Shown one piece after another: positions 20,135-25,579 of a stretch of DNA of 41,943 bases. The translations under genes were made by a program, and so were the position numbers. How positions within the stretch are numbered: the stretch's first letter is position 1; each line of letters starts with the position of its first letter. Under the pieces are notes generated by a model, which was not told where the DNA came from, did no database searches, and worked only from the letters and a program-made list of their open reading frames with translations. The DNA is from an uncultured Candidatus Peribacteria bacterium (lineage in GTDB: Bacteria > Patescibacteriota > Gracilibacteria > Peribacterales > Peribacteraceae), in the NCBI GenBank assembly GCA_964548055.1, contig CAZJPS010000002.1:1-41943 (forward strand). Reading direction: 5' to 3'.

Positions 20135-21313
20135 CTACCGTGCTTGCCATCTTTCTCTGCTCCATGTGCGCAGGTCTTCTAAAAAAATTCCTACGATACT
20201 TGCAAGTGGAATGGCAATGAGAATGCCGAGGACAGGGTGGATGACTGCAGGAAAGCTGATACCCACCAGCATGGCGATAATAATCGTTGTTGCAGGCAAA
20301 TCTACCGCGTGTTTCATGATGAGCGGGACAATGAAGTTATTTTCACAGAATTGTATAACGTAATACGCTCCCGCAACCATCAGCGCCCACGAAGGGCCGC
20401 CACTTCCAAGTGCAATCATCACGGCCGGTATGGCTCCAATAAGAGGGCCTATGTAGGGAATGAATTCTGTAAATCCCGCAAGAATTGCAAGCGTGAGTGC
20501 ATACGGCATGCCAAGTACCACAAGAACAATGAACGTGAGCACGCCAATTGCCAAACAAAGTAGCAGCTGCCCACGCATCCACTGGCCCAATTTCTGATTA
20601 ATAAGATCTACCCTTGCATCCATATATGGCCACATAGATGCAGGGAAAAATCTGCGTGCCCAGCGATAGCTGTGATTGCGGTCCAATTCTATAAAAAAAG
20701 CGGAGAGCAGCACAATAATGCTGTCGCGTATAAAGTAGAGCACTGATCCTGCAATACCTGTTAGCAATTGCACCGAACCTGCTGCCATTTCCGATAGATA
20801 CAAACTGAAATGTTCCAGTGCATCGGGGCCATTAAGTGCCAGGTTCCGAAGAAGCATGCGCAAAAGAATGGTAAGGCGCACATCAATTTCAGCGGGAACG
20901 AGTGGCAAAGAAACAATGCGTTCTGTGAGCAACTGCGTTACGGTGCTATCGGCCAATTTTGCAATGTCACCAAGTTGCTGTGCAATGATTGGGATGAAAG
21001 AAAAAACAAGGAAGACCGCAACGCTTAAAAATAAAATGTAGTGTAATAAAATCCCAAGACTTTCCTGAATGCCCCATGATCGCAGCTTCCGTACACCTGG
21101 ATCAATAATTGCAGACAGAAAAAGACCCAGGAGCAAAAGCACAATGACGTGCTGCAGCAGTACGACCAAGAGAACGGCCGCTGCGATGCCGAGTATTACA
21201 AACATGGCTCGAACAACGCTTCCTAGCGAAAGTTCTCCTGTTACATCTGCAGGAATCATTCCTCCTTTTGCAGAGGAGTTAGATGCGGCCATCATCGATT
21301 TTTTGGCGGACAT
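20135..21313 (-). CDS. AI-2E family transporter (PerM/UPF0118)
   Basis: The 392-aa polytopic protein carries FTEFIPYIGPLIGAIPAVMIAL, which is typical of AI-2E transporters. Confidence 0.8.
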   Translation of the reverse strand: MSAKKSMMAASNSSAKGGMIPADVTGELSLGSVVRAMFVILGIAAAVLLVVLLQHVIVLLLLGLFLSAIIDPGVRKLRSWGIQESLGILLHYILFLSVAVFLVFSFIPIIAQQLGDIAKLADSTVTQLLTERIVSLPLVPAEIDVRLTILLRMLLRNLALNGPDALEHFSLYLSEMAAGSVQLLTGIAGSVLYFIRDSIIVLLSAFFIELDRNHSYRWARRFFPASMWPYMDARVDLINQKLGQWMRGQLLLCLAIGVLTFIVLVVLGMPYALTLAILAGFTEFIPYIGPLIGAIPAVMIALGSGGPSWALMVAGAYYVIQFCENNFIVPLIMKHAVDLPATTIIIAMLVGISFPAVIHPVLGILIAIPLASIVGIFLEDLRTWSRERWQAR

Positions 21314-21407
21314 GCGGACGATGGAGGTGAGTGTACCTTATGGTAAGTTCTTGGCTCAACGAGACGGTCTTTACAGAGGGGCGAAGAAATCCGCAGATGT
21401 GAAAGTG

Positions 21408-22493
21408 TTAGTGAAGGGGTGATTGGTAACACTTTTCATCGCCCCATGCGGCTTCATTCGGCGTTCTGTAGCTGAGGGCCATATGCGGGCGATCATCGTT
21501 GTAATCGACCATCCACTGGATAAGAGCACCATTCAACATTTCCATATCGGTGCAATCCTTCCATGGTGGAAGGAATTCCTCTCGCAGCGTGCGATTGAAT
21601 CGTTCTAGCTGAGAATTGTCCTTCGGTGTCCTGACGCGACTCCAGTAGTGACCGAGCTTCAGCTCCAACACGGCCTTCTGAAAATGCCGGTGGAACTCAG
21701 TGCCATTGTCCGTCTGCACGTTCCGCATGGTTCCTCGCATATTTCGATTCAAAAGGTGTAGGAATTCGGCCGCGTTTTTCGAGCTGTGGGTTTTGTAGAC
21801 ACGCGCAAAGCCCCAGCGAGAATGCCGGTCGAGTGCCGTGAACATCGAAAACGTTGCTTTTCCCTGCCTGAGTATCACCGTATCGATGCTGACGAGAAAA
21901 CCAGTCTTTGGCTCCTTGATGAGTTTCGTGATGCGTTGCTTCTTCTCCGCGTACTGACGTTTGTACGCTAGCCGCCGGGCACGTTTCACATCCGGATAGA
22001 GCTGGTAGCGTTCAATGATCTTCTGTACCTGCCAGGAAGAAATCTTCGTACCATACTGTCTTTCATAGATGGCAGCAATCTTCATCTTCGAGTAGAGCGG
22101 ATATGCTGATCGCAAGAAGAAAAGACGTTGGCTTTGTTCCGGATCAAGCACAGGGAGTGGACCGACTTTTGGACGATGGGAACCGTTTTCCAGCGATTGA
22201 GGCTTCGTCACATCGAACCGTTTCTTCCAGACGTAAAATGTCTTCCGCGAAATGCCGAAATAGCGGCACGTCTTTTTGGTATTCCCCTTGAACGTTGTGT
22301 TGTAGGCGACGAACCAATCCAGACGCTGCCGTGCTTCTCGCGTGAGTGGAACTCTCAGCGATCCTGCCAGGAGAATCGTCCATATCTGTTTTGCTTTTTC
22401 GGGATTCCGTCGCGCATTTCCCCACAGGGCTTGCTGCAGTTGCATACGCTCAGCGTCGGTGAGATTCTTCGGAGAATGTTCTTGGACTGTCAT
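21408..22493 (-). CDS. IS481-family (rve integrase-core) transposase
   Basis: I prefer the start at ATG 22493 (MTVQEHSPK). The N-terminal HTH is TCRYFGISRKTFYVWKKRF. The DDE core is SIDTVIL, VQTDNGTEF and NSQLERFNRTLREEF, and it ends DYNDDRPHMALSYRTPNEA. Confidence 0.85.
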   Translation of the reverse strand: MTVQEHSPKNLTDAERMQLQQALWGNARRNPEKAKQIWTILLAGSLRVPLTREARQRLDWFVAYNTTFKGNTKKTCRYFGISRKTFYVWKKRFDVTKPQSLENGSHRPKVGPLPVLDPEQSQRLFFLRSAYPLYSKMKIAAIYERQYGTKISSWQVQKIIERYQLYPDVKRARRLAYKRQYAEKKQRITKLIKEPKTGFLVSIDTVILRQGKATFSMFTALDRHSRWGFARVYKTHSSKNAAEFLHLLNRNMRGTMRNVQTDNGTEFHRHFQKAVLELKLGHYWSRVRTPKDNSQLERFNRTLREEFLPPWKDCTDMEMLNGALIQWMVDYNDDRPHMALSYRTPNEAAWGDEKCYQSPLH

Positions 22494-22510
22494 GGGAGGC
22501 GATACAAATT

Positions 22511-22750
22511 CTAATCCTGTTCCAGCATCTTCCGAAGAAGGATTGCCAGTGCCTCGACCGCATCGCTCGGAACGTCGGCTTCCGCTAGGGCTCCCATGCC
22601 GGGCACGCGTGCTTGAAAAACTCCCGTCCCTTCGGTTGAGAAATCCACTGGCATTACCATGTAGCACTTTCCTGCATAAGCGTCGAAGAGCGGCATAGGA
22701 ACACCATCTTCCTGTAAGATTTGCCGCTGCTCATCGGTGACGAAGATCAC
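22511..22750 (-). CDS. small hypothetical protein (weak HicB/UPF0150-like resemblance); possibly the 3' part of a TAG-interrupted gene
   Basis: The 79-aa ORF starts with GTG. The segment GVFQARVPGMGALAEADVPSDAVEALAILLRKMLEQ is HicB-like. It is in frame with ORF 22760-22963 across a single TAG at 22760-22762. Confidence 0.3.
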   Translation of the reverse strand: MIFVTDEQRQILQEDGVPMPLFDAYAGKCYMVMPVDFSTEGTGVFQARVPGMGALAEADVPSDAVEALAILLRKMLEQD

Positions 22751-22925
22751 CGGCGCAGTCTACACCGTGCCCGTGTGTGGAATAATTTTCTGATAGACAA
22801 TGTGATCGATCCACGCAAAAACCACGCGGCGCTCCGAACCGTTTACTGCGCCATCTGCGCTCGGTATAATGAGAGGGCAACCCGACAGCCCGGGAGGCGT
22901 GTTTTCCCTAGGGAGTCCTGAAACC

Positions 22926-24707
22926 ATGGCCGAGGCTGGGCAGTTCCACCCCAAGGTCTTCATCAGCTACAGCCACAGGGATGAACGGTGGAAGGACCGC
23001 CTCCTCATCCACATGAGGGTATTGCAGCGAGAGGCTGCGTTCGACATCTGGGATGACCGCCGTTTACGGGCTGGAGACCACTGGTACGAAGAAATCCAGT
23101 CTGCGTTGCGGACCGCAAACCTGGCGATCCTTCTCATCTCGGCCAACTCTCTGACGTCCGATTTCATCCTCCGAGAGGAAGTCCGTTCCTTGCTCCAGCG
23201 GCACGAGCGGGAGGGCCTGCGCATCATTCCGATCGTCCTTGAGCCCTGTGCTTGGCAGAAAGTTGGTTGGCTGAGTAAGATGCAACTCCTCCCCAAGGAT
23301 GGCCGACCTCTCTCGCAGGCCCGCCGCCGCCACGAGATCGAGGCGGAGCTGACTGCAATTGCAACCCTCGTCTTCGATCTCCTGCGCGAGGCTACGTTCG
23401 CATCGGTCCAGCCCTCGCGCCCAGCCCCCATGCCCTCTACCGATACCAGTCCGTCACCGGCAGCCGCCTACAATGACCTCCTTGCGCTGGCCGCGACACA
23501 GCAGCAGTGTGGGCAGTACAGCGGCGCCCAACGAGCGTTCGAAAAGGCCATCAGCATCCTGGGACAGCTCGTCGAACGATCGCCTGCGGTGTCCGCCTAC
23601 CGTTCAAGTTTGGCGGTGGCCTGCAACAACTTTGGCAATCTCCTTCGACGCCTCGGCCGTTTGTCCGATGCGAAGGACTACTACCACAGAGCCTTGGACT
23701 TGGAGGAGCGCCTCCACGAGGAAGAGCCCGATAGTCCTGACTACCTCAATGACACGGCGCGCACCCACCACAACTTGGGCACGGCCCTGTGGGATGAGAA
23801 ACACCTCGGCCCAGCAGCCGCTGCCTTTCGCAGATCCGTGGAGATCCGTGCGTGGTTGGTTGCCAACACGGCAGGCCATCCACGTCACTGCCTTTTCCGC
23901 CGAGAGCTGGGAGATAGTTACACTTTTCTCGGCAAGATACTGTGGCAAATGAACAATGTCTGTGATGCGGAAGCTGCTTTCCGCCACGCGCTTCACTGGT
24001 TGGAGCCGCTCGTCATGGCACACCCTGCGCCCATCGAAGCTCGCATGGAGCTGGGATTGGCCTACGCGGGCTTGGCGAGACTGCTCGCCGAATGCCAGGC
24101 AGACCGGCGACAGGAAGCGGAAGCTCTGTATGCAAAAGCTCTGACCTGCCAGCACGGCCTTGTTGATGAGTTGCCTACCGTCCCCGATCACCGACATCAC
24201 CTTGCGTTCACGTTGGGCGGCCTTGCCCGTTTGTTACAGAAGCAGGAGCAACGGGCGCAAGCCCTGGACTACATTCGACAAGCCATCGACCATGGCTTGC
24301 AAGTGTTGGAATCCGTGAGCCCACAGCCGCGGCAGTGGCACGGGGATTGTACCCGCGACTATCGGTACCTCCTGGCAGTGCTGCTGGAGATGGGCAACTT
24401 TGATGAGGCGGCAACGGCAGCGACGGAAATCCCTTCCGCCCTTCGCACGGATCCGTCGGATTGCATCAGGTGGGCAGCATTTCTCGCTCCTTGTGTCAAA
24501 GAATGGGTGAAGCCAGGTACGCTCAACCTGGAACGCAACACGCGCTGCTTCGAGAACCTCGCAATGGAACAACTGCGTGAGGCTGTCGATAAGGGGCATG
24601 GTGATCCGGAACAACTGTTAACAGACAAACGTTTTGAGGCGATGCGGTCCCGCGCAGACTTCCATGAATTGATTACCAGATTGCGCAACAATTCGGCCCA
24701 GGAATGA
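22926..24707 (+). CDS. TIR domain protein with a long C-terminal TPR array
   Basis: I prefer the start at ATG 22926 (MAEAGQFHPKVFISYSHRDERWKD). The TIR_2-like pattern is FISYSH...DIWDD...G..W..EI..AL..A.LAILLISANSLTSDFILREEV...IIPIVLEPC. Two candidate catalytic Glu residues lie at 23175-23180. Multiple TPR-like helical pairs follow a Pro/Ser linker. There is no P-loop. Confidence 0.8.
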   Translation: MAEAGQFHPKVFISYSHRDERWKDRLLIHMRVLQREAAFDIWDDRRLRAGDHWYEEIQSALRTANLAILLISANSLTSDFILREEVRSLLQRHEREGLRIIPIVLEPCAWQKVGWLSKMQLLPKDGRPLSQARRRHEIEAELTAIATLVFDLLREATFASVQPSRPAPMPSTDTSPSPAAAYNDLLALAATQQQCGQYSGAQRAFEKAISILGQLVERSPAVSAYRSSLAVACNNFGNLLRRLGRLSDAKDYYHRALDLEERLHEEEPDSPDYLNDTARTHHNLGTALWDEKHLGPAAAAFRRSVEIRAWLVANTAGHPRHCLFRRELGDSYTFLGKILWQMNNVCDAEAAFRHALHWLEPLVMAHPAPIEARMELGLAYAGLARLLAECQADRRQEAEALYAKALTCQHGLVDELPTVPDHRHHLAFTLGGLARLLQKQEQRAQALDYIRQAIDHGLQVLESVSPQPRQWHGDCTRDYRYLLAVLLEMGNFDEAATAATEIPSALRTDPSDCIRWAAFLAPCVKEWVKPGTLNLERNTRCFENLAMEQLREAVDKGHGDPEQLLTDKRFEAMRSRADFHELITRLRNNSAQE

Positions 24708-24962
24708 TACGAAACCAGACATTACTGTGATGTGAAAGTTAACGAGTAACTGTTCACAGGTCGAAACTGCGGAAAACACAGGGCTTTTTGATGATGGCCC
24801 TAATTTCTAAGACAAAACTGACCACTCGAAAAGCGATTTGCGTCAAAAAAACGCTGGGAAAACGCCTGTTTCACCCTATGAGCGCATACGATAACGAAGC
24901 CCAAAGTGTTACCTCTCACTGCCGTCATGTGCAAAAGCAACACCTCGCTGTATACTGTGTAC

Positions 24963-25436
24963 ATGTCATCTTCTCTGCTGCAACGTTCGGCTCCTTCCTT
25001 CTCGTTATTAGATCAAGATGGTCGCACGCACCATGTAGAAGATTATCGTGGGCAGTGGGTGCTCCTCTTTTTTTATCCTCAAGATGACACGCCGGGATGT
25101 ACCAAGGAAGCCTGTGGGCTTCGTGATGCCTTTGCGGAGTATAAAGAAAAGAAATGTACTCTATTGGGAGTGAGTGCAGACACGGTGCAAAGCCACAAAC
25201 AATTTGCTGAAAAGTACCATCTTCCTTTTCCATTGTTAGCAGACACAGAAAAAACCGCCATTCAACGGTATGGGGTGTGGAAGGAAAAAAAGATGATGGG
25301 AAAGACCTATATGGGCATTGCGCGTACATCGTTTTTGATAGATCCCGAAGGGAAGATCGCAAAGATGTACGAAGGGGTGAAACCGGAATTGCATGCGGCG
25401 GAAGTTCTGCGAGATCTTGAGTCGTTGAAAGTATAA
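24963..25436 (+). CDS. bcp: thioredoxin-dependent peroxiredoxin Bcp
   Basis: It contains WVLLFFYPQDDTPGCTKEACGLRDAF with the peroxidatic Cys. I prefer the start at ATG 24963. Confidence 0.85.
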   Translation: MSSSLLQRSAPSFSLLDQDGRTHHVEDYRGQWVLLFFYPQDDTPGCTKEACGLRDAFAEYKEKKCTLLGVSADTVQSHKQFAEKYHLPFPLLADTEKTAIQRYGVWKEKKMMGKTYMGIARTSFLIDPEGKIAKMYEGVKPELHAAEVLRDLESLKV

Positions 25437-25579
25437 CTCTGCAATAAGGAAAGGGATTGAAAGGAATGGGAAGTCCTTCTCACGGCAGCTTTTTGATCGT
25501 TATCCCTTCAATCCCTTTATTCCCTTGAATCCTTTTGCCCCTTACCAATCCTTATATTTGCGCTTATACTCCAGTAAAG

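Follow-up and report, generated by a model that had tools for sequence, protein, structure and literature searches.

Canonical members of the IS481 family of insertion sequences (IS), as known from ISfinder, are about 1-1.3 kb long and have a single open reading frame (ORF). The family is characterized by TG...CA termini and by target duplications of 2-15 bp, mostly 6 bp (PMC10045372). One of its members, ISArsp12, which is related to ISPfr21, is 2615 bp long and carries two passenger genes (PMC6305408). Here we describe an element of this kind in a window of 41,943 nt, which is the entire contig C2 (CAZJPS010000002.1) of a 1.19-Mb metagenome-derived genome assembly (101 contigs, 95.5% complete). 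The element lies between the gene of an AI-2E transporter (20135-21313, minus strand) and bcp (ATG at 24963). We propose, with a probability of about 0.9, that positions 21406-24933 are one transposable unit of 3528 bp from a divergent IS481-family lineage that carries passenger DNA, a 'transporter IS' in ISfinder usage. From left to right the unit contains the gene of an IS481-like DDE transposase of 361 aa (21408-22493, minus strand), a conserved companion gene that encodes 79 aa and starts with GTG (orf79; 22511-22750, minus strand), a passenger gene for a 593-aa protein with a TIR_2 domain and TPR repeats (TIR-TPR; 22926-24707, plus strand) and a non-coding tail of 191 bp (24708-24898).

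The element resembles canonical IS481 (the Bordetella IS481 and its relatives; PMC10045372) in its TG...CA termini, in imperfect repeats shorter than 50 bp, in a target duplication within 2-15 bp, and in a transposase with a helix-turn-helix (HTH) and an rve DDE domain, the 3' end of whose gene reaches into the terminal repeat. It differs in having three genes and the 191-bp tail. The compact single-transposase form was thus not found here, and with 3528 bp and three ORFs the unit therefore falls among the passenger-carrying IS481 variants such as ISArsp12. With ISArsp12 and ISPfr21 it shares what is probably an IS481-type DDE transposase, repeats that start with TG(T), a short target duplication and unrelated genes between the repeats. 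In contrast to ISArsp12, it is larger, has the conserved orf79, carries TIR-TPR in place of a regulator and a permease, and duplicated 4 bp rather than 6 bp of its target, and its host appears to be a candidate-phyla-radiation bacterium. The taxon names of AI-2E homologues with about 49% identity suggest that this host is Peregrinibacteria-like. IS481 elements with passenger genes have already been described, and the element reported here is a divergent addition to them.

Empty sites and the ends of the element

Six contigs with an uninterrupted site were reached by way of proteins that cluster with AI-2E at 90% identity, four of them metagenome contigs of the Joint Genome Institute (L121-L124) and two of them Logan contigs (L125 and L126). 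In all six, bcp and the AI-2E gene are adjacent and divergent with 117 nt between them, and the wider synteny is also common to them, with a PRMT-like gene, DUF1003 and ProRS on one side and a 162-aa ORF, a TPR protein and RlmI on the other. Identity to the window is 98.0-99.5% in the left flank and 93-99.4% in the right flank, and 21406-24933 has no match in any of the six. At the join, every one reads ...GCAGATGTG-AAAG-CAACACC..., with AAAG present once, whereas two copies surround the insertion. Because the six contigs carry a single AAAG and no element, the insertion was defined as 21406-24933, flanked by a 4-bp target-site duplication AAAG at 21402-21405 on the left and 24934-24937 on the right. 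The site is thus uninterrupted in conspecific strains from six other assemblies.

The same joint was found in sequencing runs. We compared the source run (X1) with other public runs (X2-X6), of which X2-X5 are metatranscriptome runs. A contig of 3374 nt from X2 joins 21401 to 24934, so that 3532 nt are skipped and four letters are common to both sides, and contigs of X3, X4 and X5 contain the same joint, which was thus present in four runs. In the contigs with the empty joint, ...GATGTGAAAG is followed by CAACACCTCGCTGTATACTG..., the sequence from 24938 onward, while the host flanks beside the tips of the element are …GATGTGAAAG and AAAGCAAC…. The insertion point is in the 117 bp that separate the two divergent genes and is upstream of both, at a distance of 88 nt from the start of AI-2E and 29 nt from that of bcp. 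A TATACT box (24950-24955) was retained after the insertion, and everything upstream of this box was replaced. TIR-TPR and bcp point the same way, and therefore read-through transcription from the element into bcp would be possible.

Each end of the element is formed by a terminal inverted repeat of about 30 nt; the two match imperfectly and have TG...CA tips (…CATGTGCA and TGTTAGTG…). The transposase-proximal repeat (21406-21440, plus strand) reads TGTTAGTGAAGGGGTGATTGGTAACACTTT from its tip and overlaps the 3' end of the transposase gene, and the distal repeat (24899-24933, minus strand) reads TGCACATGACGGCAGTGAGAGGTAACACTTT from its tip, with the insertion ending at 24933. The TG...CA feature of IS481 is present in both, as TGTTAG... 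(21406) and TGCACA... (from 24933), one tip being TGC and not TGT. An inverted match of 15/17 positions was observed between 21419-21435 and 24903-24919, 13-14 nt inside each of the ends that the empty sites define. Its core, GGTAACACTTT, is found inverted at 21425-21435 and 24903-24913, beginning 20-21 nt from each tip, and these are the only two occurrences in the 1.19-Mb genome. When the terminal repeats were locally aligned with the element interior and with shuffled copies of it, no inverted-repeat-like sequence beyond chance was detected in the interior. The 191-bp tail is part of the insertion, because it is missing from the empty sites; it does not significantly resemble the inverted repeats, and it shows no similarity to the corresponding region in relatives.

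The duplicated AAAG and the tip TGTTA together (21402-21410) read AAAGTGTTA, which is the reverse complement of the inner core of the repeat, TAACACTTT (21427-21435), 17 nt inward. A small hairpin is therefore possible at the left junction, and this complementarity may be a coincidence or may reflect a target preference.

The initial annotation had read the locus as a possible IS481-type unit with cargo. Its gene content (AI-2E transporter, rve-type transposase, small ORF, TIR_2+TPR protein and bcp) was correct, as was the step in guanine-plus-cytosine (GC) content, which is 44-48% in the host flanks, 50-54% in the transposase and 59-64% in the TIR-TPR gene. The comparison with an empty site that it had suggested turned out to be available, and the element is a single insertion between AI-2E and bcp. 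The type of element and the inclusion of the TIR-TPR cargo were both borne out, the latter by the empty sites, the inverted repeats and the AAAG around the whole 3528 bp, and the borders, which had been placed at an 11-bp direct repeat, were wrong.

Thirty related genomes from other genera were also searched, in which AI-2E and bcp are not within 1.5 kb of each other, and this comparison is uninformative on the empty site. The genome has a second AI-2E transporter paralogue (C16:13820-14965, 46% identical), and matches in the relatives are possible orthologues of either copy. Exact-protein look-ups with the transposase, TIR-TPR and AI-2E proteins of the window gave no record.

The transposase, orf79 and related elements

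In Pfam the transposase matched rve, rve_3 and HTH_28, and its putative catalytic residues, D204, D262 and E297, are invariant in the alignment with its relatives. The best NCBIfam model was IS481 (NF033577), with 192.8 bits against a cut-off of 224, and the next was IS3 with 99.6. Its best annotated matches on plasmids are IS481 family transposases, to which the protein is only 29-32% identical. Closer relatives were found at L025-L028 and on the genome contigs L034 and L079, whose transposases are 50-75% identical. The target duplications of the element (4 bp) and of L025 (5 bp) are both within the 2-15 bp range of the family. From family knowledge, the putative DDE transposase would bind the cores of the two repeats, cut the DNA at their TG/CA tips and insert the entire stretch from one repeat to the other by a 4-bp staggered cut. 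The segment so integrated would comprise the transposase gene, the clade-specific 79-aa ORF and, on the opposite strand, the higher-GC TIR-TPR gene with its own promoter-like site.

Each of the seven clade members (transposase at least 50% identical) has a homologue of the companion gene orf79 immediately ahead of its transposase gene, with a GTG start. The motif GGTGTAnnCT is conserved 6 nt before this GTG in all seven relatives, and the sequence farther upstream is unrelated between loci. In the window the motif, GGTGTAGACT, is located at 22757-22766 (minus strand), and it looks like the -10 box of a putative near-leaderless orf79-transposase transcript. Searches of Pfam, NCBIfam, PADLOC and PHROGs assigned the product of orf79 to no family, and neither its sequence nor its fold had a significant match in the PDB. 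Its AlphaFold model has a predicted local distance difference test (pLDDT) score of 86 and exhibited weak fold resemblance only, HicB-like or dsRBD-like (E at least 0.37). Another ORF (22760-22963, minus strand) is in frame upstream of orf79 and overlaps the 5' end of TIR-TPR on the opposite strand, and a gene split by the in-frame TAG was considered. This ORF is not conserved in any relative and orf79 has its own GTG behind the conserved motif, and hence there is no support for a split gene.

Derivatives that lack a transposase were observed at L117:616-930 and L119:5250-5546, where the transposase-side repeat follows orf79 by about 15-50 nt with no transposase between them. The orf79 homologues and the IS clade were also found repeatedly beside ParA/ParB partition genes (L115:5081-7240; L119:3216-5546; L025:3695-5366; L028:2597-4352). 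At L115, orf79 comes after parA and parB and overlaps the stop codon of parB, and at L025 and L028 the element abuts parB-parA. These neighbours suggest that the home of the orf79/IS clade may be plasmid-like replicons of GC-rich bacteria.

The transposase-side repeat is kept in all seven clade members fetched (including L025-L028, L034 and L079), where it ends in ...CA and is located inside the transposase gene or at most about 50 nt past its stop codon. The same overall layout was found at L025, a unit of 2.4 kb with a distal repeat, an oppositely oriented membrane-type ORF of 172 aa, orf79, the transposase and the second repeat. Its distal repeat is clear (TGTACGTGATGAGAGAGAAGGGTAACACT) and 1 kb upstream of orf79, and the unit is flanked on both sides by TACGC, a 5-bp duplication. 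The distal core of L028 encloses a cargo ORF of 297 aa, and at L116 there is no cargo, the distal repeat being just 65 nt upstream of orf79. What is found between the distal repeat and orf79 differs from one relative to another, so that this space behaves as a cargo slot. For L034, the best candidate for a distal repeat was located inside an M23 peptidase gene and was rejected as a chance hit.

A more speculative idea, to which we give rather little credence, is that the orf79-bearing IS481 lineage serves as a dedicated cargo shuttle, moving genes, immune-type TIR effectors among them, from the extrachromosomal replicons of GC-rich phyla, where it would reside beside ParAB partition modules, into streamlined candidate-phyla-radiation genomes. 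If so, orf79 would act as a new partner that binds the repeats or has a regulatory role and is kept even in the transposase-less derivatives (L117 and L119), and the slot would acquire unrelated genes, as with TIR-TPR here, the membrane ORF of L025 and the 297-aa ORF of L028.

The TIR-TPR passenger gene

The passenger protein matched Pfam TIR_2 (8.6e-16) and TPR families. The best promoter-like site in the region, TTTACT-17-TATAAT (22842-22870, plus strand), agrees with the consensus at 10/12 positions, and therefore the likely start of TIR-TPR is the ATG at 22926, not that at 22869. The TIR domain is of the ThsB type, with a match of residues 9-141 to the PADLOC model PDLC00420 ThsB1 (1.1e-24). 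In plant TIR domains the CLDEL/CLEEL motif carries the catalytic glutamate, which NAD-cleaving TIR domains use, and E84/E85 of the passenger protein (ILREEV) are aligned with this motif.

The protein is similar to ThsB of Thoeris systems in its N-terminal TIR_2 domain, which matches the ThsB model, and in the retained glutamate, and it differs in lacking a ThsA/SIR2 partner. No ThsA partner (SIR2 or Macro with SLOG) was found in the element, and SIR2_2 had no match in the whole genome. It also shares the TIR domain with TIR-STAND/NLR-like proteins, but the cargo has no NTPase module between TIR and TPR, as Pfam shows only TIR_2 and TPR, and no NACHT/AAA NTPase, in the 593 aa. The closest full-length homologue, 55% identical, is located among metal-efflux genes near a serine recombinase. 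The other homologues match in the TIR domain only and are mostly TIR-NACHT/AAA-TPR proteins of about 930 aa with NACHT/AAA_16, whose TIR domains are 50-60% identical to that of the cargo. TIR-TPR is the sole TIR in the genome, and it was not found in the 30 related genomes. The protein would most probably act on its own, as a conflict or defence effector of the NADase type.

Alternative origins and copy number

The borders proposed in the initial annotation were two copies of the 11-mer GATGTGAAAGT, at 21396-21406 and 24729-24739 (both plus strand), and both copies are indeed present and exact, the first of them adjoining the stop codon of the transposase. These observations would fit a target-site duplication or recombination scar that bounds the unit (21396/21407 to 24728/24739). 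However, 24740-24933 is absent from 6/6 empty-site contigs, which puts the right border (24933) 195 nt past the second copy. The first copy happens to straddle the true left junction, as it consists of the host flank GATGTG, the duplicated AAAG and the first base of the element, T. The second copy is internal to the element, in the tail. Repeats of this length are also expected by chance, since two exact direct repeats of at least 11 nt were observed in 21000-25200 and order-1 Markov random sequences matched in composition contained 2.04 on average, with at least one in 88% of them. Nothing like an inverted repeat adjoins the second copy; local alignments of its surroundings with the inverted repeats scored only 14-16, and the mean best score of shuffled element interiors was about 22. 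The GATGTGAAAGT repeat is thus a chance match, not a border of the element, and we regard a role as duplication or scar as highly improbable. Neither is TGTGAA, with which both copies begin according to the initial annotation, the terminus; the actual tips are TGTTAG... and TGCACA..., and the borders with their AAAG duplication are those given by the empty sites. The initial annotation was right that no inverted repeat is found directly upstream of the transposase, which was confirmed. The second copy was also considered as a relic repeat, and it had no resemblance to the inverted repeats beyond chance. The palindrome that overlaps it (24731-24758) was likewise rejected as a relic repeat or terminator, as it folded no better than shuffled sequences (z = 0.70).

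The initial annotation had also raised an assembly chimera, in which the GC-rich segment would be foreign DNA joined into the contig. The genome is a metagenome assembly of 101 contigs, GC jumps by 15 points, and the X1 contig depth is 3.4-6.2 over the element against 7.7-8.8 over the flanks, all of which speak for a misjoin. Nevertheless, independently assembled Logan contigs of the same run are unbroken across both junctions, by 236 nt and 573 nt, and a k-mer assembler would not be led astray by a repeat of only 11 nt. A misjoin would not create inverted repeats precisely at the borders together with a duplication of AAAG, a sequence present once in the empty sites, and we consider the chance of a chimera negligible. 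Two separate events, one bringing a TIR-TPR islet and the other a simple IS of orf79 and transposase, in either order and with the distal repeat as a solo relic, would account for the different GC of the two modules (50-54% and 59-64%), which points to different histories, and for the weaker outer half of the distal repeat. This history is improbable in our view, because neither module is present in any of the six empty-site contigs and intermediates were not encountered, the AAAG duplication surrounds the whole 3528 bp and neither module alone, no repeat is found between orf79 and TIR-TPR, and L025 and L028 share the repeat-cargo-orf79-transposase layout with other cargo. Capture of the cargo in a former host is a better explanation of the difference in GC. 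If the two AAAG copies recombined, exactly the empty sequence would result, and so the filled state could be ancestral and the element lost elsewhere by precise excision. Such precise excision over 4 bp seldom occurs, the site is empty in six assemblies of two studies and filled only in the lineage of the window, and the composition of the element is foreign, with TIR-TPR absent from the 30 relatives; we therefore hold an ancestral filled state to be very unlikely. The GC step, this absence and the single copy in the genome were all counted in favour of a foreign origin of the element.

Several observations weigh against a single IS481-family unit with a cargo slot. The transposase scored under the NCBIfam cut-off for IS481, the outer half of the distal repeat matches poorly and its tip is TGC, and no distal repeat was found in the DNA available for L026, L027, L034 and L079, so that the generalisation to a cargo slot draws on three or four loci. 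The element is present in one copy only; the same genome contains no other copies that could define its ends, and a further complete copy in a different context was not recovered. With only one copy, the case for mobility of exactly this unit depends on one insertion event.

For the single transposable unit, a filled and an empty site are both in hand, and together they are a clear natural case in which one IS-type element has brought a TIR gene of the immune type into a very small genome. In uncultured bacteria with genomes of this kind, mobile elements and defence genes are considered scarce. The exact ends, the target duplication and the conserved companion ORF make the element directly testable, and the annotation of the locus is corrected in the borders of the element, the start codon of TIR-TPR and the status of orf79.

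Fragments of the element 99-100% identical to the window were detected in X2-X4, where the dominant host allele is empty, and in X6, where no host flank was detected. None of the runs was found to contain the complete element in another context. One 153-nt metatranscriptome contig of X3 starts exactly at 21406, and its six further letters mismatch the host flank. The fragments and this contig hint at another insertion context or a circular form, and no second junction was recovered. An apparent departure from the element at 22741 in X6 was an 18-nt spurious match.

Downstream of bcp, the spacer at 25437-25534 is a 98-nt palindromic element of degenerate 9-mers (GGAAAGGGA TTGAAAGGA ...). Its arms recur in a large number of unrelated contigs, with a summed depth of up to 465, and it is therefore a dispersed repeat. 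It is the most variable stretch between strains, and contigs of X3-X5 join it on the opposite strand (joint 25439/25536).

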